From assembly GCF_044704955.1 (NCBI RefSeq), contig NC_091982.1, positions 229,462,001-229,526,000 on the forward strand: 64,000 nt of DNA, written 5' to 3'. The stretch is from Pristiophorus japonicus (lineage: Eukaryota). The notes beneath the pieces are model-generated. The model was not told where the DNA came from, did not search any database, and was given only the letters and a program-made list of their open reading frames with translations. How positions within the stretch are numbered: position 1 is the first letter of the stretch; every line of letters starts with the position of its first letter. Made by a program: the position numbers and the translations under genes. Below, one piece after another: positions 10,931 through 40,739 of this stretch.

Positions 10931-11293
10931 ATGCTGTAGAACACTGACAGCAGAACTGTCAAAATTAATGTGGACATGGTACCTTTAAGTAAACCGGCTG
11001 ATAACAAGTCATCAAATTACATAATCAGACCCGCTTCCTTTTAATTGACCGGGAACCTCATTGTGCAGGCTTAACAAGCCCAATCATCATGAAATCACGA
11101 CAATAGAGTGGACTGGAGCCAACAACAGGCTGGGACCATGCTACCAACCCCAGTATGTCAGGCATTCACATGTCTTTTGTGATATCATAAAGCCTGGTGT
11201 ACCAGCTTCCTTTGGAAAGAGGAACTGCCAACAGCATGAATCGCCTGTTAAAGTGAGGTATATCCACCTCTGTCTGTAGATGTGGGTGTACAG

Positions 11294-12092
11294 TGTGGAA
11301 ATGTATATTTAAAGTTGCATTACACTGTTTTTTTGTACCCTTTTTGCCATAAAACAAAATGGAGTTCCAGTCCTGCCAGAAACTTCTGCAGCAGACAGTC
11401 TGTTTGCATAAACATGCTAACCTTGACTGAAACTGCTGATAGCTGATTAATAGCCACCAGACAACATTAAGACTGTCCTGCTGAGATAAGTACCACCCAT
11501 TGTGCTCCCCTGTATTATCAATAGTCTGTCGCTATGCCAGACCTTAGAAGGGCTGGATAAAGGTTGTAAAAATGCAGCACCAATTCACCCCCTAAGAGAT
11601 AATCAAATTACCAGCCATTATCTCTTGTACAGAACTCATCCATAATATGCAAGAAGCCAAGTACCCAATCAACCACTCTGGAAATCATGGACCCAAATAA
11701 CTGGCCAGGAAACTGGACAATCCTAAAACAATGCAAAGCTGGTGATAGCACATTACCATACCCTAATCGAGTTATTGCTGACTGGCCCACCAAAAACACT
11801 GACAAAGGAGACATTTGAAAAAAATGTAAAGACAAGGATGTGTTAATTATTAACTGAGTGGAGAACTCTTTATTTGTTTTCGCTAACTGCAAAGGCAGAA
11901 CCAATACACAGGATGGAACCATAACTTGTTTGTTCTATTGTATAAATACATTGTGACACTGCACCATATTGGGAGTCTTCACTTAGCCTTTGACAGAGTG
12001 AGACTCTTCCTTGATGCAAGTAAAACTTATTAAAGGAACATCTGCCGGAGCTGATTGTGTTAGAGTTGATATTGAGAGTCGAGATTTTGACA
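11294..12092 (+). repeat. ERV 5' LTR
   Basis: tgtggaaatg...gattttgaca; CCAAT at 11901, TATAAATA at 11941, ATTAAA at 12029; about 35 differences from the 3' LTR by eye. Confidence 0.95.
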
Positions 12093-12101
12093 GTTACTTC
12101 T

Positions 12102-12119
12102 TGGAGGTTCCACCGAGAT
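12102..12119 (+). promoter_or_regulatory. Primer-binding site, tRNA-Gln
   Basis: TGGAGGTTCCACCGAGAT is complementary to the vertebrate tRNA-Gln 3' end (ATCTCGGTGGAACCT-CCA). Confidence 0.85.
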
Positions 12120-12194
12120 CACTTACTCTCTACTCTGTGAGTGAACAGATGCCGGCATAGTGCCTCTTCAGTGAAGGGCTTAAATGGCCAGAAT

Positions 12195-12203
12195 AAGGTG
12201 AGC
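12195..12203 (+). promoter_or_regulatory. Putative major splice donor of the ERV
   Basis: AAG|GTGAGC about 80 nt downstream of the PBS; candidate env acceptor with CACTAAC branch point (16998) and ctttcattcgcAG ending 17032. Confidence 0.55.
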
Positions 12204-12431
12204 CTTTTGCTCGCAAGAGGTCTCTTTACTGTTGAATCGCATATGTAATCTGTTGTCCATAGTGGAGGTACTGCGATCTACGAGACTCGACATTTAAGAG
12301 CTAAAGTTATTTTTGTAATCATTTCCTTCTCAGCTTGTAGACAGAAGGGATCTGATCCTGAAAATATCCAATCTTGAAACAGCCCGGGGAAATTTTCATT
12401 AGGAAAAGGTAAAAAGAGCGCTATCGATCGA

Positions 12432-12685
12432 TGATCCTTGTGTGATAGGATCAGGGTCCTTGTGTGATAGGACCATAAATTAAGATGATACTTGTGTGAT
12501 AGGATCAGGGTCCTTGTGTGATAGGACCATAAATTAAGATTATCCTTGTTTGATAGGATAATATAAGTCCCTAAAGGAAAGTTCCTTGTGTGATAGGACT
12601 GCCTTAGAAGGGACAGGGTCCTTGTGTGGTAGGATCCAGGTCCTTGTGTGATATCTTATTAAAATTTATGGTCCTAAGTTAAGGA
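12432..12685 (+). repeat. Leader array of about 8 stem-loop units (TCCT-TGTGTGAT-AGGA)
   Basis: Units at 12432, 12455, 12486, 12509, 12540, 12580, 12616 and 12639 (partial) with conserved loop and covarying stem extensions. Confidence 0.85.
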
Positions 12686-13085
12686 CTCGGTCTGTAGTGG
12701 TGTACAACGCAGACTAAGAATTGACTATTTGTTTAGATAGAGTTTAAGGTTATGATTTGTATACCCGCGTGAATGTTGATTGTCCTAGTTGTCCTTGTTA
12801 TACTGTTGGGTGTTCAATACTTTTGTGCGACATTGCAATTAGAGAAACGGGAAGAGTCACTAGGGAAAATTGTGATTCGGAAAAACAAGAATTGATTGAG
12901 AAAAGAAACAGTAACTGATTGATCAACTGTAGTTGGTTCGTGTCAACATATCTCACACACCCAGACTGAGCCCGAATTAAGAGCCTTTTCAGGCCACGTG
13001 ACGGCCAGGAGAAGTGGGCGTAGAGAACTCGGTTGACTGAAAGGATTGTGAGATCAGAAACTGTGAAAAATCTTAATCATCCAGA

Positions 13086-13330
13086 ATGGGTGCCGGAGCA
13101 AGTAAAACACCACCAAAGGGCACACCAGCCTATTTTATGCTCCAGAATTGTGGTCAGTCTTCAATTGACCACCTAAAAAAAATGGATAAAATGGACTAAG
13201 GATGGAAACAGGCCATTTCCACCCGATGGTTCATTTAATTTAGAAAAAAATAACATGTCTAGAGGAGTGTCTTATAGACAGAGACCCAAATAAAAGAGGT
13301 AAAAAAGAATAATAGAAAAGACCTGGGTTC
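13086..13330 (+). pseudogene. gag: ERV gag N-terminus (matrix), frameshifted
   Basis: MGAGASKTPPKGTPAYFML...WIKWTKDGNRPFPPDGSFNLEK: myristoylation Gly2 and a W..FP..GSF matrix motif; frameshifts in A-runs. Confidence 0.75.
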
Positions 13331-14351
13331 CGATTCTCCGAGCCCACTTAAAATTAACAGAGAAAGTAAATCAATATGTAAGAAAAGGAAAAAAAAACTT
13401 GATAGTGACTATCTTAAGTGACGTAGGGATCCAAAAATAGAGCTGGCCAAACAATAAGCTTTGTTGAATGAAGAGAGACTTTTGTGAATGTTTGACTTTG
13501 AATGAGATTGTGTGATTTTTGACTGCGGAATATTTGAGGTGGGAATTAATGAATTTTTCATGTGTCTGAAAGCCTGTTTGAGAAAGTGGTGGAGCTGTCT
13601 GCTGTTTTAGCTCCACCCACTTTTTCGGACAGAGTGAAGGTTTTTTTTTAACCCTTCGTAGTGTTGTATGTGGGAAATTTTAAGAAAGTGTGAACCTAGA
13701 ATTGAATTACATTTTAAGTTAAAAACGCAGATGTAGATTTATTCGGATGATAAGTTACAGAGCTAGGAAATGCACAAAGGATAGGTTTGTTGAGCAAAAG
13801 ATAAAAAAAATGCGTGGTCCTGTTGGTTTAAACATTTTTTTTTTGAAATGCTCATTTGTCAAAAGAAAACACGTAATCATTGATTACATTGGGTTGAAAG
13901 ACAATAAATGTAATCTAGGAATGAGATAAAGGATGGAGAAGGGAAGTTGTAATGCCTTTTTAAAAAAAAGCCTGTGTGGGTCTCTCGAGGCTTTGTGTAA
14001 AACCTTGACACGAAAACTTCTAGCTCAGTAAAAAGAGTTTTAAATAAAAGATTGGCAGTACAATATTTGAATTGGGATTTTGAGATATTTCAGGTGATTC
14101 TCATTGATAAACATTTCGGTTGTATTGGAAAATCTTGGGTTTGGAAGCTTTTTTAATAAAATTACACAACTGCTGCGTCAGAAGCTGAAGCTTACAAAGA
14201 TGTAATTTATGAGACACTGTATTATAAAATTGAAGTTATAGAGCAAAAGATTGGAGTTTTTGATGTTCAGCTTCTAAAACAGAAGTTGGGCACACAATTA
14301 TAAAACAAGTACTTTGCATTTTGTGATCTGTGAATCACTATAAGCATGAAT

Positions 14352-17320
14352 GAGAAGTCCATGTAACACACCGATTTTTCCGGTTCAGAAGCCCAATAGT
14401 GACAAATGGAAATTTGTCCAAGACCTACAAGCCGTGAATGAATCTGTATTCCCAACTTATCCGGTGGTGCCCAATCCTGCGACTATACTTACCAGTATTC
14501 CGGCAAACTCAACGTATTATACGGTGATTGATCTATGTTCAGCATTTTTCTCAATACCCATTCACCCAGAGCCCCAATTCCTGTTTGCCTTCACGTATAA
14601 AGGATGCCAATATACGTGGACAAGACTCCCACAGGGATTTACCGAAAGTCCTACTATATTTTCACAATGCTTAAAGAAGGATCTGGAAGATGTAATTTTA
14701 CCAGCAGGTTCGATACTTGTGCAGTATGTTGATGACTTACTGCTCGCCTCACCCTCCAAATTAGCCTGTGAAACAGATTCTCTTGCATTATTAAAAGCCT
14801 TGGCCTCGAAAGGACACAAAGTGTTAAAGGCGAAGTTACAATTTGTCTCAGAAAGGGTTTGGTATCTAGAACACGATTTGGTCAGAGATACGAGACAATT
14901 GACACAAGACCAAGTAAAAGCAATCTGCTCTGCCCCACTACCAGTAACCAAGAGAGAAATGAAACATTTCCTCGGCATGTCAGGATATTACAGGCACTGG
15001 ATTATGAATTATTCCGAGATCATTAGACCATTGTTAGACATGTCCATGCCCTCACTACCAGAAAAGTTGATTTGGAATGAAGTATCCCGGAATGCTTTTC
15101 AGAATCTTAAGCAGTCCCTCACTTCAGCACCAGCCTTGGGATTACCAGATTACACTAAGCCATTCAACTTATTTGTTCATCACAATTCGGGTTTTGCACA
15201 ATCTATTTTGACTCAGTTACATGTGGACAGGCAGCGACCGATAGCGTGTTTTAGTACCCAACTAGATCCAGTGGCACGTGGACTACCAGGATGTCTTCCT
15301 TCTTTGGCAGCAGCTTATTATGCTGTACAACAGGCTCAGACAATAACTCTAAGTCATCAAACCGTTTTATATATCCCACACTCTGTTGAGATTTTACTTA
15401 CTAAATGTGCCACTCACCACCTAACTTCTGCAATGAAGTTGAACTGTTTTCAAATCTGAACCTTATCATTAAAAGATGTACTACCTTAAATCCAGCCACT
15501 TTACTTCCCACGGAAGAAGACGGCAAACCCCATTCATGTGAAATGGTAACCGAATTAGTGACTAAACCACGTATCAATTTAACAGATGTACCAATGTGTA
15601 ACCCTGATCTAGTGTACTATGTTGACGGATCAGCCTTACGAAATGATAGGGGCCAACCTAAAGTGGCTTATGCAATTGTAACCCAGTTTAATGTTGTCGA
15701 AAGAGCCTCTCTTCCAGACTCCTTTTCAGCCCAACAAGCCGAATTATTTGCGTTAACTCAAGCCTGTATTCTGGCTGAAGGACAAACAGTTAATATCTAC
15801 ACTGACTCCAGGTATGCTTTTGGAGTAACGCATGACTATGGACAAATTTGGAAAATGCGTGGGTACCTGATTTCTTCATGAATCACTATCAAGAATGCAG
15901 AACAAGTAGAAAATCTTCTGCGAGCCATTCAGTGCCCCTTAAAACTTGCCATTATCAAATGCCAAGCACATACAGGCCAGTTGAATGAGGTAGCACGTGG
16001 AAACGCCAGAGCTGATAATGCAGCTAAGTCAGCAGCTCTGTCAAAAGGGGGGGATGCAGGTGTCATTGTTTCCACTAAGGAAAAATAATTGCCTAGATCC
16101 ACCACCCACTTTAATGATGTGCTGGCCTTTCAGACACAGGCCAGCACGGAGGAGGTGTTGACCTGGACAAAGGATCAATGTTATAAAAATCCAGAAGGAA
16201 TATGGGTTTACCATGACGGCCGCGTGGTGGCGCCCAAATCCTTACTTCCATGGATTGCCCGATGTGTTCATACATTCACACACGCTGGCAAAAGGGGGAT
16301 GGCAGATTCAGATTATATTTTGGCAACTTCGTATGCACCAGGTATTTCGGCAATTGCAAAACAAATCTGTGAAAATTGTGTTACCTGTCAGATAATGAAT
16401 CCGGGTAAGACGGAACAAGTAGAATCTGCCTCCCACCCAAATCCAATGGGGCCTTTTGTACATTTACAAATGGATTTTATTAAATTACCTATATGTATGG
16501 GATTTAAGCATGTATTAGTTATTGTAGATGTGTTCTCTAGATGGATTGAAGCCTTTCCATGTAAAAAGGCCGATGCCACTACTGTTGCTAAATTTTTGTT
16601 AAAAGAAATCGTACCGCGCTTTGGAATTCCTGCTAAGCTTTCTAGTGATAATGGGTCACATTTCACGGGAACTGTTATAAAAGAAATGTGTAAATCTTTA
16701 CAGATTAATCAACGTTTTCATTGCAGTTATCATCCACAATCAGCTGGACTTGTTGAAAGATATAATGGAATGCTTAAAAATAAGTTGGCAAAATTATGTA
16801 ATGACACTGGACTAAAATGGGTAGAACTGCTGCCCTTAGCCTTGATGGTAATGCGATCTGCAACCAACAGAACAACAGGCCTGTCACCGCATGAGATAGT
16901 TATGGGACGTCCCCAACGACTACCTTTTACAGCACCATTTACTGCAAAACAAATGGACATCCACAAATGGAAGAAAATATGTTGAATTATTGTATTGCAC
17001 TAACCAAATGTATCTCCAGCTTTCATTCGCAGGTAAAAGAAGCTCAAGTCGAGCCAGTGGAAGGGAAGTGTCATAATCTGGAGCCCGGGGAATTTGTTTG
17101 CATCAAAATCTTTAAAAGAAAAAGCAATCTACAACCAAGATTTGAAGGACCATACCAGGTCTTGCTGGCGACTAATACTGCAATCAAGGTAAAAGAAAGA
17201 CCAACATGGATCCACGTGTCCCATTGCAAAAGGGCACCCGACCAGGAGGAAGAGAAGAAGGAACCAGAGGAACAGAAAAAGGAAGACCGAATAAGGAACT
17301 GTACGGACTATGAGGACTGA
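14352..17320 (+). pseudogene. pol: ERV pol (RT, RNase H, integrase), 5'-truncated and disrupted
   Basis: SPCNTPIFPVQKP, LPQGF..SP, QYVDDLLLA; RNase H YVDGSA / SAQQAEL / YTDSRYAFG; integrase H...H, C..C, QMDF, SDNGSHF, VERYNG, GPYQVLL; stops and frameshifts. Confidence 0.95.
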
Positions 17321-18552
17321 TAGTGCAATGCTTAACAGGGTTGTGCTTTGCGTTATTGATAATACCAGGGGTACAGAAACGCGAACGAAGGGAACTGCAG
17401 GTAAATGTATTTATGGCGCTGAGTCATAAGTATGCTCAAGAAAGAAACTTGTCTAGTTGTTGGATATGTTCCCATGTACCTGTCCACTCTGAAGGGGGGT
17501 ATTCCCCTAAGATCCGACCCTTTAATGAATCAGAAATGATAGAATGGTTGATAGTGCAAAATAGGACAAACCTAACCAAGGTGTCAGAAATGAAGGATCT
17601 AACAGAATGGAGGTCAGCAGGGTATAAACTTACAACCTTCCAGGGATGGTACCAGCCAAATTATAATAATAACTGTCAGCCATCCTTCCTAAGTATTATT
17701 CCCGGAATAGGAAATCCTGAAGGTATAATATGTCTATATGTAAATAATGAGACTAATGGACCAGAAATGGGGCGCAGCAAGTGTTCCCAAATGACTAAAT
17801 GGCAAGCCATAACAAATCTCACTGACGGGAGAAAGATAGCAACCGTTAGCTGGACTATGGTCCATAATAAAGCCTCAGGTGAAGGGTGGGACGGTGAGAC
17901 CACTTGAGCATGGATGGCACGGAAGGACCAAAGGCTGACGTCCTATAATTGCACTTACTTTATTTGTGGCCATGAAGCCTACCCATGGTTACCAGTCAAC
18001 TGGACAGGGTCTTGTTACTTAGGATATGTGGTACCCTTTATTAGGACAACAAAGACTCTAAGCGATGCCTATAGAAGTCATAGACTTAAACGGGATTTGA
18101 CATGGCTAAATGGAATATTCAGGGTAATAATACCACCCTATGGTAGCCATTTGAACAGTGGCTCTCCAAAATTGTATGGTCTTAGATTATCTCCTAGCCA
18201 AAGAAGGAGGGACATGCGCGTTAATTGGTGAGGAATGCTGTATGTATATCCCAGATAAGTCAGAAGAGATCGACAATCTAGCTGAATATATTAGGAAATA
18301 GAGTACAAACAGACTATTGGCCAGGACAGTACCACCTTGTGGGATTGGGCATTGGGATGGTTGGGATCCCTAGGGAGATCTTTGGTACAGGGTTTGATCA
18401 TATTCTTGCTGATAGTTAAGTGTTGCTGTGCCAGGTTGGGAAAAACATTGTTACCAACCGAGACCACTGCTAGGGTTATGGTAGCAACAACTACTGAAGG
18501 TTCTTGTGTGGAAATGGAAATAGAAAGACTATGCAAGATTAGAATGGATTAA
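17310..18552 (+). pseudogene. env: ERV env, gamma-type, disrupted
   Basis: Signal-like hydrophobic start, CWIC (CXXC), furin site RLKR, ISD plus CX6CC VALQNCMVLDYLLAKEGGTCALIGEECC at 18158, TM segment GLIIFLLIV. Confidence 0.9.
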
Positions 18553-18570
18553 GTTGTCCTTGTGAAGGAC

Positions 18571-18582
18571 AAAAGGGGGGAA
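18571..18582 (+). other. Polypurine tract
   Basis: AAAAGGGGGGAA directly before the 3' LTR. Confidence 0.9.
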
Positions 18583-19381
18583 TGTGGAAATGTATTTTTC
18601 AAGTTGCATTACACTGTTTCATGTACCCTTTTGCCATAAAACAAAATGGAGTCCCGGTCCTGCCAGAAACTTCTGCAGCAGACAGTCTGTTTGCATAAAC
18701 ATGCTAACCTTGACTGAAACTGCTGATAGCTGATTAATAGCCACCAGACAACAGAAAGACTGTCCTGCTGAGATAAGTACCACCCATTGTGCTCCCCTGT
18801 ATTATCAATAGTCTGTCGCTATGCCAGACCTTAGAAGGGCTGGATAAAGGTTGTAAAAATACAGCACCAATTCACCCTCTAAGAGATAATCAAATTACCA
18901 GCCATTATCTCTTGTACAGAACTCATCCATAATATGCAAGAAGCCAAGTACCCAATCAACCACTCTGGAAATCATGGGCCTAAATAACTGGTCAGGAATC
19001 TGGACAATCCTAAAACAATGCAAAGCCGGTGATAGCACATTATCACACCCTAATTGAGTTATTGCTGACTGGCCCACCAAAAACACTGACAAATGAGACA
19101 TTTGAAAAAAATGCAAAGACAAGGATGTGCTAATCATTAACTGAGTGGAGAACTCTTTATCTGTTTTCGCTGACTGCAAAGGCAGAACCAATACACAGGA
19201 TGGAACCATAACTTGTTTGTTCTTCTGTATAAATACATTGTGAAACTGTACCATATTGGGAGTCTTCACTTAGCCTTTGACTCGAGTGAGACTCTTCCTT
19301 GCTGCAAGTAAAACTTATTAAAGGAACATCTGTCGGAGCTGATTGTGTTAGAGTCGTATATTGAGAGTCGAGATTTTGACA
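18583..19381 (+). repeat. ERV 3' LTR
   Basis: Direct repeat of 11294-12092, followed by the ACAG TSD. Confidence 0.95.
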
Positions 19382-35230: not shown

Positions 35231-36067
35231 ATTTACCTGATGGATCCGGGACTTCTCACCGTGACACCAACAACTGACCCGCCTCCTGAGAGCGGATTGG
35301 TCACCCGGCCTGACCTGCTTCTGGAAGTAGACAAGTGTGTTAACAATGACCCCCATCGATTTTTAGAACAAGCTGCCAGCTCATGCAGTGGATGCGGATA
35401 CACTGCAAGGATTCAAAAGGGTGTTCGACGAGTTCCTGAGTGTGACTGGTATCACTGCGTATAAAAGGAAGGTGGGTATTTGGAGAAGCATCTCTTGGTC
35501 ACCATGGTTTCCTGGAATCAAGCTACAAGGTGACTGGTTGGTGGTGGTGAGGTTGGAGGGTTGGGAGTGAGGGAGGTGGAGGGGGTCATGCTGTGCATAA
35601 ATTAGGGACAGGCTCAGCGGACCAGCTGGCCTTTTCCTGCCCTTTGCTTTTGTTGCTGAAACCTTTCCACACACTTTGGCTTTGTGTTTCTCTCTTCCTT
35701 TTTCTCATCATTGACAGCATTGACCCTACTCTCTGGAAGTCCCTCCTCAACCTTTAAATACCTCTGCCACCTCTAGCTTTAAAAACCTTCGAAAAATCTA
35801 TCTTTTGATCACTTCTGCTTATAGGGGGTATGGTATTGTAGCAGTTATGTTACCGGACTAGTAATCCAGAGGCCCGGACTAATAATCATAAATTCAAATC
35901 AAACCATGGCAGCTTGAGATTTTGATGTTTTGTTTTTAATTAGAAAATTAAAAATCAGTACAACTGACCACGAAGCTGCTGAATTGTTGTAGAAACCCAA
36001 CTAATGTTCTTCAGGGGAAAAAAACCTGCCATCCTTACCTGGTCTGGCCTATATGTGACTCCAGTCC

Positions 36068-36300
36068 TGTAAAGTCCTGTCCCCTCAGTACAGATTCACA
36101 CGAGGCATGTAGTGAAGTCAAGGTCACTCTGGACCTGCACCTTTATTTCACAGCTCTGGAATGCTGCACTTGCCTGAGACCTGCCCTTGCAAGTGCACCC
36201 CTGGTGGTAAGGTATGCTGGTGGTTACAGGTCATATCTTATTACAATCATGTATAGCATGTTAGGATACAGTTATATATAATAATGTAAGATACATGACA
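36068..36300 (-). repeat. Gypsy 3' LTR (15-bp deletion)
   Basis: Matches 40492-40739 except 3 substitutions and loss of atatacctgtctctt. Confidence 0.95.
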
Positions 36301-36327
36301 TCACCCTCCCCCAAGGTCTTATTGTCT

Positions 36328-39300
36328 TTATAGGTTCAGTCTCTCAGGTGGTCTACGCTCTCGCGTGGAGCGTCTGTGTTGTGGTTCAGTTGTTTGCCTT
36401 GGTGTCTGTTTTTCTTTGGGTGTGGTTGCTGATATCTCGCCTGGGCTGTCTGTTTCGATTGGTGTGATTGTTGTTGACTCGCCTGGGCTGTCTGTTGGGA
36501 TTGCCCTTTCCTCAGGTTGTTCCCTCTGTCTGTCCACCAGGTGTGGTGCGAGTTCCACATTGTAGTCTGCCTCTGGTTCCGCAGTGTTGGTAAATCTGCT
36601 TTTGACTTGGTCTACATGCCTCCGCCAGGTTTTGCCATTGTCCATTTGTACTACCAGTAGCCTGTTTCCTTCCTTGCCCGTTACTGTCCCTGCAAGCCAT
36701 TTGGGACCCCTGCCATAGTTTAGCACAAACACTTTGTCCCCTATCTCATTCCATCTCCCCCTCAAATTTCTGTCATGGTACTCAGTCAGCTTACGGTGCT
36801 TTGCCTCAACGGTTTCGTGCATGTCTGGGAGGATTAATGAGAGCCTAGTTTTTAGTCCTTTTCATCACCAGTTGCACGGGGGGGATCCCAATCAGTGAGT
36901 GCGGACGAGATCTGTATGCCAGCAGCAGTCGCGACAGGCGACCCTGCAGCGTGGGACCTTGGATTTTAAGCATGCCTTGTTTAATGAGAGCCTCTGGCCC
37001 TGGGCTCACTCCGCCTGGCCGTTGGAGGCCGGCTTGAACGGTGCCGTCTTGATTTATGCCGTGGTCAATTATAAAGTCTTGGAATTCTGTGCTGGTGAAG
37101 CATGGACCATTGTCACTGACCAAGGTTGTGCTCGAGTTTAAAATGGTGCATTCGATCCACTTTGAAAATGCATCTACAACTACGAGGAACATTTTGCCCA
37201 TGAATGGGCCCACATAGTCTATGTGCACCCGCAACCACGGTTTGGTAGACCAGGGGCAGGGGCTCAGTGGAGCCTCCCTGGGGGCATTGCTGAGTTGGGC
37301 ACAAATGGTGCACCTTCGGACACAGAGCTCCAGGTCTGCTTCAATACCAGGCCACCAGATGTGGGATCTGGCAATGGCCTTCATGAGAATGATCCCCGGG
37401 TGCTCGCGGTGGAGCTCCCAGACAAATGCCTCTCTGCCTCACAGAGGCATGACTACTCGGCTGCCCCACATCAGGTAGTCTGCTTGTAGTGATAGCTCAT
37501 GCATGCGCCTGTGAAAGGGTTTTAATTCCTCAGGGCAGGCATCGCGAGCCTCTGCCCAGTCACCGGTTAGGACACATCTTTTTACTAAGGATAACGTGGG
37601 GTCGCTGCCCGTCCAGGCTCTGATTTGGCGAGCCGTCATGGGCGAACCTGTGGATTCAAAGGCATTGATTGCCATGACTATCTCACGGTCCTGTTCGTCA
37701 GACCGTTCCATAGTCGCCAGGGGTAGCCTGCTGAGCGCGTCGGCACAGCTGTCTGTGCCTGGTCTGTGCCTTATGGTTTAGTCGTAGGACGCCAGCATGA
37801 GTGCCCACCGTTGAATTCGCGCCGAGGCGTTGCCGTTTATTGCCTTGCTCTCGGATAGGGGGGACGTGAGGGGCTTGTGGTAGGTTTCTAATGCGATCTT
37901 GGCCCCGAAAAGGTATTGGTGCATCTTTTTGACACCATACACGCACGCGAGCACCTCCTTCTCTACCATTTCGTACCCGCGCTCCGCCCACGAAAGTGAC
38001 CTGGAGGCATAAGCTATGGGTTGTAATTTGCCCGCACTATTGACATGTTGCAAAACGCACCCGACCCCATACGCTGACGCATCGCATGTGAGAACTAGCT
38101 TTTTACCTGGGTCAAAGAAAGTCAAAACACTGTTGGAACACAGAAGGTTGCATGCCTTATTGAAGGCGCGTTCCTGGGCGTCCCCCCAAAACCAATCGCA
38201 CCCTTTTCTGAGTAGCATGTGGATAGGCTCCAGCAGCGTGCTTAAGTTCTGCATAAAGTTCCCAAAGTAATTGAGTAGCCCGAGAAAGGCGTGCAGTTCT
38301 GAGACATTCCGGGGCCTGGGTGCCAGGCGAATTGCTTCTGTTTTGGACTCTGTTGGGCGGATTCCATCAGCGGCAATCCTTCTGCCCAAAAATTCAACCT
38401 CGAGTGCGAGAAACAGGCACTTGGATTTCTTGACTCGTAGGCCTACCTGATCCAACCGCTTTACTACTTCTTCCAAATTACGGAGATGGGAGTCGGTGTC
38501 CCTGCCCGTGATAAGTATGTCGTCTTGAAATACAACCGTCCCCGGGATGGACTTGAGCAGACTCTCCATGTTGCGCTGGAATATGGCAGCTGCCGACCTG
38601 ATGCCGAATGGGCATCGATTGTACATGAAAAGGCCTCGATGTGTGTTGATGATGGTGAGTAGCTTGGATTCCTCGGTCAATTCTTGCATCATATACGCAG
38701 ATGTGAGGTCTAATTTTGAGAAAAGTTTACCTCCAGCCAATGTGGCAAATAAGTCCTCCGCTCTGGGCAGCGGGTACTGGTCCTGTAGGGAGACTCTGTT
38801 TATGGTAGATTTGTAGTCCCCACAGATTCGTACGGATCCATCAGGCTTCATGACTGGGACAATGGGACTTGCCCAGTCGCTAAATTCCACAGGTGGTATA
38901 ATGACTTCCCGCAGAAGCCTGTCTAGTTCGTGTTCAATCTGTTCCCTCATCACATAGGGTACAGCTCTGGCCTTGTGATGGACCAGTCTAGCATCCTGTG
39001 TGATGTAGATTTTGACTTTGGCCCTTTGAAAGTGCCCACACCTGGCTGAAAGAGATGTTCAAATCGCTTTATAACTGTTGAGCAGGAGGTCCATTCCTCT
39101 AATGACATGGCATGGACATCATCCCATTTCCAGTTTAGTTTTGCCAGCTAGCTTCTCCCCAGCCGTGCTGGGGGGTCTCCGGGGACAATCCACAGGGGAA
39201 GTCAGTTCACTGTCCCTTTGTGTGTGACAGAGAGCATGGCGTTGCCAAGGACTGATACAATTTCTTTGATATAGGTCCTTAGTGTGGTGTCGACCCTTGT

Positions 39301-39573
39301 GAGTTTTGGTCTGTCTCTTTTATGCAGCCACAGTTGTTCAAATTGTTGAGCGCCCATGAGAGATTCACTCGCTCCCGTATCCAGCTCCATATTGACAGAT
39401 ATCCCATTGAATAGGACCCTCATCATTATAGGAGGCGTACTGTTGTAGGAGCAGCGGCCATGGATCGTGTTGACCCGCTGTACACCGGTGTCCCGGGTAC
39501 TGTTCCCACCATCTTCTGGTCCGCTTTCTGACCATCCGATTCGAATACCAGCCAAGCTGCCGTTTTTTTGCAC
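36328..39573 (-). pseudogene. pol: Gypsy pol (protease, RT, RNase H, integrase), frameshifted
   Basis: ELDTGA; WASPIVPVMKPDGSVRICGDYK, PFGIRSA, FQDDILI; CDASAYGVG, EKE; H.HPG..MKAIARSHIWWP, C..C, HIDYVGP, SDNGPCF. Confidence 0.93.
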
Positions 39574-39626
39574 ATGCGGGCCAAATGCCCTGTATATTCA
39601 CAATTTCTGCAAACAACCTGCTGAAA

Positions 39627-40457
39627 TCAACATCCCCTTGCCGAGTGCCCACCCCCACACCTCCAGCACAGACCTGTTCCATTGTTCAAAGAGTTTCCAA
39701 AGAATGAGCTGCGTCTGGCTGATCTCTCTTGCGCTTCTCTCAGTTTGTAGTTGATTGCTCGCATTGTGGGTTGATGAGGTGTGAACGGCCGATCCTGTGG
39801 CCCTTGATGGCTTCTGCCTGCTGTCGAGAACCTGTTCTCCCGGTTTTGTCTGTGTGTGGGGGTAGCAGCTTTTTTAGTGCTGTGAACTTCTTGTTCCAAT
39901 ATTTCGTTAGTTGTCGTACCCGCATTGTAAATCAACCTCGTTTCTTCTTCCCCTACCAAGAATGTCTGTGCAACCAGTGCTGCCGTCTCTAAGGTCAGGT
40001 TCTTGGTCTCTATGATCTTTCGGAATATGCCTGTGTGGCCTATTCGTTCAATGAAAAATTCTCTCAGCATTTCTCTCCTCAGTTCATCGGAGAACTCACA
40101 TAAACTAGCCAACCTCTGAAGTTCCGTCACAAAGTCGGGTATGCTCTGGCCCACACAGCGTCTGTAGTTGTAGAACCTGTGTCTGGCCATGTGTAGGCTG
40201 CTCGCTGGCTTTAGGTGGTCTCTTACCAGTGTGCTCAATTCTTCAAACGACTTGCTTGCTGGTTTCTCGGGTGCCAACAGATACTTCATTAAAGCGTATG
40301 TTTTCGAGCCACAGCTGGTCAAGAGATGAGCTCTTCTCTTGTCTGCCTTATCATCGCCTAACCAGTCTTTGGTTACAAAGCTTTGCTGGAGCCTTTCTAT
40401 AAAGTCCTCCCAATTGTCTCCCGCATTGTACTTTTCATCTGATCCGTTGTTCGCCAT
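39627..40457 (-). pseudogene. gag: Gypsy gag with CCHC zinc knuckle
   Basis: MANNGS...WEDFIERLQQSF...ARHRFYN...LQRLASLCEF...CWRCGGGHSARGC; a second knuckle follows in a shifted frame. Confidence 0.9.
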
Positions 40458-40472
40458 TCTGTGGATTCTGTA

Positions 40473-40490
40473 ATCCCATCCTTATCGCCA
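40473..40490 (-). promoter_or_regulatory. Primer-binding site, tRNA-Ser(GCU)-like
   Basis: TGGCGATAAGGATGGGAT versus expected TGGCGACGAGGATGGGAT (CG to TA, consistent with CpG decay). Confidence 0.7.
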
Positions 40491-40491
40491 C

Positions 40492-40739
40492 TGTAAAGTC
40501 CTGTCCCCTCAGTACAGATTCACACAAGGCATGTAGTGAAGTCAAGGTCACTCTGGACCTGCACCTTTATTTCACAGCTCTGGAATGCTGCACTTGCCTG
40601 AGACCTGCCCTTATATACCTGTCTCTTGCAAGTGCACCCCTGGTGGTAAGGTATGCTGGTGGTTACAGGTCATATCTTATTACAGTCATATATAGCATGT
40701 TAGGATACAGTTATATATAATAATGTAAGATACATGACA
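40492..40739 (-). repeat. Gypsy 5' LTR
   Basis: TG...CA, 248 bp; on the minus strand TATATAA (~40610-40616) and AATAAA (~40566-40571). Confidence 0.95.

Follow-up and report, generated by a model that had tools for sequence, protein, structure and literature searches.

What purpose could be served by a row of RNA hairpins that display one loop on many different stems, in the leader of a provirus that has lost most of its gag gene? The question is raised by an endogenous retrovirus (ERV) in the genome of Pristiophorus japonicus, located in the 64,000-nucleotide stretch of contig NC_091982.1 that was analysed here and is called the window below. The initial annotation of the window had described about eight hairpins with a fixed 8-nt loop, and had proposed that they form a structure-selected array for protein binding, possibly favoured by the loss of gag and pro. 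The hairpin array is real and family-wide, and in this class I ERV it lies downstream of the predicted splice donor and ahead of the gag start. It is probably a selected RNA element.

The provirus

The provirus spans positions 11294-19381 on the forward strand and is flanked by a 4-bp target site duplication, ACAG. The 5' LTR (11294..12092, TG...CA) follows one copy of the duplication, and the 3' LTR (18583..19381) is preceded by a polypurine tract and followed by the other copy. The two LTRs are identical at 765 of 797 aligned bases (96%). A primer binding site (PBS) at 12102..12119, beginning 9 nt past the LTR end, is complementary to the 3' end of genomic tRNA-Gln genes. The predicted major splice donor, AAG/GTGAG (12195..12202, with the cut between 12197 and 12198), is assigned by its match to the consensus.

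Only a 5' stub of gag remains (13086..13305, with the ATG at 13086), and its reading frame is broken early. Gag-bearing copies of the family diverge from the window at about position 13305, where an AT-rich filler of about 1 kb begins (13306..14345, no strand assigned). The filler replaces most of gag and pro and is present in many copies from all three lineages described below. The pol region (14350..17320) occupies several frames and encodes a reverse transcriptase (RT), RNase H and an integrase whose C-terminal domain is of the MLV type (Pfam RVT_1, RT_RNaseH_2, RNase_H, rve and MLVIN_C). In a comparison with solved structures, p80 RT/RNase H chains gave the best matches (E ~1e-84), followed by Pr125Pol and peptidase A9 chains (~1e-31). 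The RT, the RNase H, the MLV-type integrase domain and the p80 RT structural matches together identify the provirus as a class I ERV. A broken env-like region (17314..18550) was assigned by its position and by CWIC and RLKR motifs recognised by eye; two pieces of it gave no match in Pfam. Two Pristiophorus japonicus proteins are 95% identical to the provirus over part of the integrase, and the top match otherwise is a Callorhinchus protein with 54% identity.

The window contains a second pair of direct repeats at 36067-40739. These are 98-99% identical and lie about 4.4 kb apart, with long minus-strand open reading frames in between. They probably belong to another, young LTR element.

The hairpin array in the window

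The array is immediately preceded by a palindrome, ATCGATCGAT (12423..12432), which is a candidate dimer-initiation site. Hairpin A (12432..12453) has a 7-bp stem, TGATCCT/AGGATCA, and hairpin B (12455..12474) has a 6-bp stem, GGTCCT/AGGACC. A second A-B pair follows at 12486..12528, created by a 54-nt tandem duplication (TRF period 54, 2.4 copies) that is absent from many copies of the family; the stem of its A unit is broken in the window copy, leaving 2 bp, and that of its B unit has 6 bp. Hairpin C (12539..12562) has an 8-bp stem, ATTATCCT/AGGATAAT. Hairpin D (12567..12614) is predicted to carry the array loop on a long, bulged stem. Hairpin E (12616..12637) has a 7-bp stem, GGGTCCT/AGGATCC, that includes one G-U pair. 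The last unit (12639..12652), of B type, is reduced to the 5' arm and the loop, and is an intact hairpin in other copies. All these units are read on the plus strand.

The eight loop sites seen at first inspection are borne out (starts at 12439, 12461, 12493, 12515, 12547, 12587, 12623 and 12645), and the quoted stems (12432, 12455, 12509, 12540 and 12616) are correct. A contiguous stem of 4-8 bp is present at six of the eight sites, and there are no other such sites across the 64-kb window. Units 3 and 4 merely repeat units 1 and 2 as a 54-nt tandem copy, so the window contains five stem types (A to E) and not eight. The loop is less uniform than was thought: it is exact in six of the eight units, reads TGTTTGAT in hairpin C (12547) and TGTGTGGT in hairpin E (12623), and conforms family-wide to TGTKYGAT.

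The 3' arm of the last hairpin has been deleted by a 23-bp micro-inversion (12653..12675, minus strand) that is private to the window copy among 72 leaders of its type. The inverted segment contains the sequence near 12663 that had been noted as the reverse complement of a piece of the array. Its orientation is unique to the window (1 of 72 leaders) and is the opposite in 61 of the 72, and a functional long-range complement at this site is not supported. The inversion may be a genuine event or an assembly error; sequencing contigs give zero cover at 12645-12674, and a sequencing run of a second organism reaches the 3' part of the leader but not the array. The minimum-energy fold of the window contains a long-range rod, which was rejected as a family feature because it is a product of this private inversion. 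Two short inversions were also observed in the array of another locus (L204), one of which, like that of the window, begins at the edge of a loop.

Distribution of the array and its three lineages

Loci were fetched by searches with the array itself, with gag and filler queries independent of the array, with sequence patterns and by place. These gave 198 loci with a usable leader, 145 of them distinct; scoring was confined to the top candidates of each search, which makes the 145 leaders a sample. The number of units per leader was obtained with a parser that is off by one on a few decayed units. The array core TCCTTGTKYGATAGGA, which is common to lineages L1 and L2, has 597 exact matches genome-wide compared to 12 for the reversed control. 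None of the 57 leaders located independently of the array has zero units (of 30 loci from each query, 29 for gag and 28 for filler had a leader anchor). Leaders carry from 1 to 10 units, and copies with 1-2 units exist. In L1 and L3 the array starts about 240 nt past the donor-like site, a match to the consensus, and it lies 435-480 nt upstream of gag. A TCGATCGA palindrome adjoins the array in 50 of 73 L1 and 34 of 38 L3 leaders, and L2 leaders have other palindromes. The palindrome 5' of the array is not displayed on a stable hairpin in the folds computed.

L1, the type found in the window, has 2-10 units per leader (median 6). L2 has the same loop on mostly different stems (TGTTTCT/AGAAACA, CCCT/AGGG, TCATCCT/AGGATGA and GACCCT/GGGGTC, plus A- and C-like stems), and its leader is about 65-73% identical to that of the window. 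It surfaced in a search with a pattern in which the fourth pair was changed; 19 of the 30 loci fetched belong to L2. The L2 capsid-region protein is 43-47% (about 45%) identical to that of the other copies. L2 is a second virus, which shares the loop motif, the PBS and the filler with L1 and L3. L3 has units of the form TCTTAT-GTG-ATAAGA, 1-6 per leader, separated by A- and U-rich spacers. L3 is the commonest of the three, with 4055 exact matches to its unit (control 2).

Several further observations were made in this survey. L2 has a gag of its own, seen as nine places with 81-100% identity followed by a drop to 43-47% (L093, L118, L158, L185 and L186). Five L2 copies on small contigs (L167-L171) are identical or nearly so, and L095 and L096 form a close pair on contig C2; such repeated copies may have been duplicated together with host DNA or may represent assembly redundancy. 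The distance between the CA end of an LTR and the PBS is usually 2 nt. In this family the gap (12093-12101 in the window) is 9 nt in 56 of 68 L1 and 25 of 37 L3 leaders, 5 nt in ten L3 leaders and 8 nt in 19 of 26 L2 leaders. Given a gap of 8-9 nt, processing of the LTR ends may be atypical in this family.

Protein searches for distant families returned the same family, or L2 followed by matches at the level of L1 and L3, with no fourth array lineage among the top candidates. A pattern designed for further stem types, RCT...AGY with a second loop, matched only a simple-repeat array. A pattern scan of viral contigs gave five matches, all of them unrelated short repeats.

Loop, stems and covariation

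The family loop, UGUKYGAU in RNA, was tabulated over 591 units. Position 4 is G in 491 and T in 87 units, position 5 is T in 420, C in 153 and G in 15, and position 6 is G in 563. Position 3 was fixed by the filter used for this count; when the filter is removed, 601 of 606 units have T there. The commonest L2 loops are TGTGTGAT (104 units) and TGTTTGAT (24 units). The core CTTRTKBGATAR has been kept in two viruses with different capsid regions. CpG decay was considered as the sole source of the T-bearing loops and rejected: the loops have CG 132, TG 277 and CA 21 times, and three CpG sites outside the loop have TG just 2-3 times compared to CG 40-45 times.

The paired stem changes noticed in the window recur between unit types across the family. 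Among ten stem types with an 8-nt loop, each present in at least 10 loci, 43 of the 50 outer positions pair, compared to 32.8 +/- 2.2 when the arms are permuted. Permuted arms reach this number in 3 of 1,000,000 trials, a figure that overstates the significance because the unit types are related, were chosen by recurrence and had their register set from the window. A pair counter applied to 11 types, with one real copy each, found that 5 of 7 pairs change on both sides; the score was 0.488 versus 0.192, none of 500 shuffles scored as high, and slid registers gave at most 0.231. Stem pair 6 occurs as G-C, U-A, C-G and A-U. Compensatory change is supported for L1 and L2, and L3 is without stem covariation. 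The covariation figures are not probabilities of selection. The stem covariation, the kept loop and the placement in the leader support the view that these are structure-selected hairpins with a conserved tip, at the position of a packaging signal.

Decay within inserted copies looks neutral: 48 of 64 stem variants confined to a single locus break a pair, and private double changes were found in 9 cells (5 of them in one sublineage) compared to 4.9 expected. Against the covariation, stem variants present in at least four loci likewise break a pair in 8 of 15 cases, and some of these are chimeras produced by a loop-to-loop deletion.

In context, the loops are predicted to be unpaired at 0.53-0.74 in L1 and 0.72-0.86 in L2, and the apex of L3 at 0.60-0.87. 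The folding z-scores of three L1 copies are -3.7 to -6.3 on the plus strand and -4.7 to -7.1 on the minus strand; since the two strands fold equally well, the folding energy gives no sign of selection on the RNA strand. A search of positions 11200-14400 against Rfam gave nothing near the gathering score, with two chance matches (E 0.76 and 1.2). Roquin- and Smaug-type loops were considered and do not fit. Loop-loop kissing between units was rejected because the U-variant loop has no self-complementary core.

Proposed shrinkage and regrowth of the array in L3

A tree was calculated from the sequence downstream of the array in 142 of the 145 leaders (L198 bears an L2 label there despite its reassignment). 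L2 is separated with a support of 100/100. L3 is nested within L1, which is star-like, and branches after leaders that mostly have 2-3 mixed units; its end branches are the shortest in the tree. The supports on the way to L3 are 96/87, 96/84, 99/86 and 100/86, and that of L3 itself is 99/72; the branching order they describe is an estimate, because the root is a midpoint, a single clade is assumed and the region is open to recombination, and the bootstrap had not settled (0.960).

L1 contains a latent register, shifted by one base, in which three pairs would be G-U, U-G and a C-A mismatch. In L3 the same three pairs are A-U, U-A and U-A in 135-137 of 141 units, and it is the old register that has a C-A mismatch. 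The tree suggests that L3 arose inside L1 via intermediates with 2-3 units, with a one-base shift of the pairing register and a renewed expansion. Three changes would have been fixed after the drop to 2-3 units, converting the 8-nt loop into a GUG triloop, and the array would then have regrown to about four units. All lineages share a K-B-G apex that has U and A on its flanks and is predicted to be exposed, a likeness limited by the weakness of single L3 units (-2.2 to -2.6 kcal/mol), which pair mutually in some whole-region folds.

A recurrent shortened unit, GATTCT-TGTG-AGGATC, is still a hairpin and has a loop without the GAUA part. It sits in leaders between L1 and L3 (L013, L014, L039, L043, L067, L194, L205 and L210). 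Among the gag-bearing loci (L031-L060 and L248-L251), position 7 of the Gag zinc knuckle is Thr in L1, Thr or Ser in the intermediates, and Ile in most L3 copies. The register switch coincides with the Thr to Ile change and with the largest and youngest burst of the family; the knuckle change, being a single lineage-linked change, is by itself no evidence of co-evolution.

Gag loss and the number of hairpins

The suggestion that the array was favoured because the provirus lacks gag and pro is contradicted by the unit numbers of L1 and L3. In L1 the mean is 5.85 units in gag-bearing leaders (n=26) and 5.90 in gag-replaced leaders (n=48), and in L3 the means are 3.62 (n=13) and 3.70 (n=20), respectively (P=0.95 in both lineages). 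Copies with gag and copies with filler are intermingled across the tree. The array is older than the gag loss and independent of it. Units are present in all 28 leaders found with the filler query.

Copies of the filler from the three lineages are 72-90% identical, and most L2 and L3 loci contain it; comparison of the filler with a gag-bearing copy gave no match. A CCHC zinc knuckle, one per Gag, was found in 24 of 30 gag-query loci and in 4 of 5 L2 gag loci, and the knuckle of the family matches retroviral nucleocapsid (NC) structures.

A candidate packaging signal and its alternatives

We assign a probability of about 0.55 to the reading that the array is an elastic, multivalent packaging signal recognised by the NC domain of Gag, a candidate function deduced from sequence. 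A multivalent signal acting in cis is suggested by a position confined to unspliced RNA, by the fact that the array is never absent, is kept without gag and appears to have been rebuilt after loss, and by a G-bearing tip on exchangeable stems. The exposed G-bearing tips would be held by several Gag zinc knuckles together. Identical loops would permit units to be gained and lost through template jumps, and selection would act during viral replication and not after insertion. Packaging signals are described as lying in the 5' untranslated region and consisting of stem-loops with unpaired purines (PMC12789967), and the single knuckle of Moloney murine leukaemia virus (MoMuLV) NC binds an exposed G (PMC7599994). 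The array has the leader position, the compensatory stems (in L1 and L2), the predicted unpaired G, the retention in cis and the CCHC-bearing Gag of such a signal (Psi). However, MoMuLV NC bound a UCUG linker and not isolated hairpins (PMC7599994), so that the nearest model with a single knuckle works without hairpin tips and the analogy is partial. The packaging reading is also weakened by the leaders with 1-2 units and by the recurrent shortened unit. A tentative and rather doubtful extension of the packaging reading is that the array is a countable, modular code, in which the number of tandem hairpins sets the avidity and is restored after loss, with the L3 register switch representing a natural change of packaging specificity preserved in a fossil series.

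The same position in the leader would suit a host RNA-binding protein that uses the hairpins to export unspliced RNA or to dampen the upstream splice donor, and the need for such a signal in cis would extend to gag-replaced copies. The loop persists in viruses with capsid regions that are half different, which is what dependence on a host ligand would require. A host protein should nevertheless resist the change from the 8-nt loop to the triloop, yet L3 is the most abundant form (4055 matches versus 597). The knuckle itself is conserved across lineages, and no Rfam match was obtained, including to signals of the constitutive transport element type; we regard export or splicing control as unlikely. 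It is less likely still that the hairpins are a dimerisation scaffold, swapping arms between two RNAs after a first contact made by the upstream palindrome. The L3 unit is a near-perfect palindrome, and the TCGATCGA element beside the array has been duplicated together with L3 units, but the conserved loop lacks self-complementarity, and arm swapping would not require one loop to be kept on different stems. Action of the array as DNA, with clustered GATA sites serving as an internal enhancer, is very improbable. Six WGATAR sites are found in 266 nt of the window array compared to 0 and 1 in the remaining leader, and L3 units contain TGATAAG; on the other hand, 132 of 430 L1 loops have CGATAG or a similar sequence there, L2 unit f reads TGATGG, and neither paired arms nor G-U pairs are required for a DNA site.

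The array could also be a neutral by-product, in which slippage copies units and template switching at hairpins copies one arm from the other, resulting in paired changes without selection. Duplications and loop-to-loop deletions are indeed frequent (1-10 units), and micro-inversions from the loop edge are seen in the window copy and in L204, which has two. Private double changes show no excess, however, and most single-locus variants break a pair, although this test covers replication of host DNA only and not reverse transcription. Apart from the arm inversion of the window, there is no inverted loop in 145 leaders (L204 not included). Neutral copying also fails to explain why the loop has outlasted a 30% change of the leader, or why leaders with zero units are absent; its probability is small. 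The amplification of the array in gag-less copies by competition for helper Gag has next to no credibility. Gag-bearing L2 copies have 5-6 units (five leaders) and filler copies 5-7 (median 6, 21 leaders), but L1 and L3 show no such difference and the two kinds of copies are interleaved.

The choice of genome by Gag is usually studied in one-off folds, in which sequence, structure and number of sites are inseparable. The present family offers one motif on at least 10 stems, in 1-10 copies, with two loop shapes, a traceable history and more than 1,000 genomic units. If the array is a packaging signal, loop identity, stem and valency could be separated in assays with short RNAs. It would also be the first candidate signal for fish class I retroviruses, none being described in the literature searched. 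That search found no description of such a leader array; most subscription journals were outside its scope, and supplements or repeat libraries could already describe the family.

Comparison with known systems

Among the retroviruses of fish, zebrafish ZFERV reportedly has a repeat region in its leader, and salmon SSSV is also said to contain repeats. The likeness is that of tandem repeats in the long leader of a fish class I retrovirus; no structural analysis of these repeats is known to us. The mouse ETn and MusD elements include non-autonomous copies in which the coding sequence has been swapped for unrelated filler while the LTRs and the leader are kept. By analogy, the filler copies described here may be an ETn-like, non-autonomous form that spread in trans. 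ETn and MusD are class II elements, whereas the array family keeps remnants of pol and env, and its filler is common to three leader lineages. CmiERV lineages II and III of the elephant shark are ERVs of a cartilaginous fish, as is the present family, and are epsilon-like, as it may be; neither text on them contains the word 'leader' (PMC4422223, PMC4977317).

The Psi regions of HIV-1 (SL1 and SL3), MMTV, MPMV and FIV resemble the array in their stem-loops, which lie 3' of the splice donor, carry unpaired purines and serve as Gag sites (PMC12789967). They differ in being single, heterogeneous folds, and none is described there as a variable-copy tandem array of one motif (PMC12789967). By analogy, the array would work like a retroviral packaging region, one that has no GACG feature and no Rfam family.

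The core encapsidation signal of MoMuLV (DIS-2, SL-C and SL-D, with UCUG sites) is similar in its leader position, in a palindrome followed by stem-loops, as in most L1 and L3 leaders, and in the use of a single-knuckle nucleocapsid with multiple binding sites, which in the array are candidate sites (PMC7599994). It has two GACG kissing hairpins, and its NC sites lie in a linker exposed by dimerisation (PMC7599994). The pair of GACG-tetraloop hairpins of the gammaretroviral signal is not found in the array, whose loops are TGTKYGAT or GTG. Instead of that pair, the array repeats a single, non-complementary loop 1-10 times on stems that are exchangeable.
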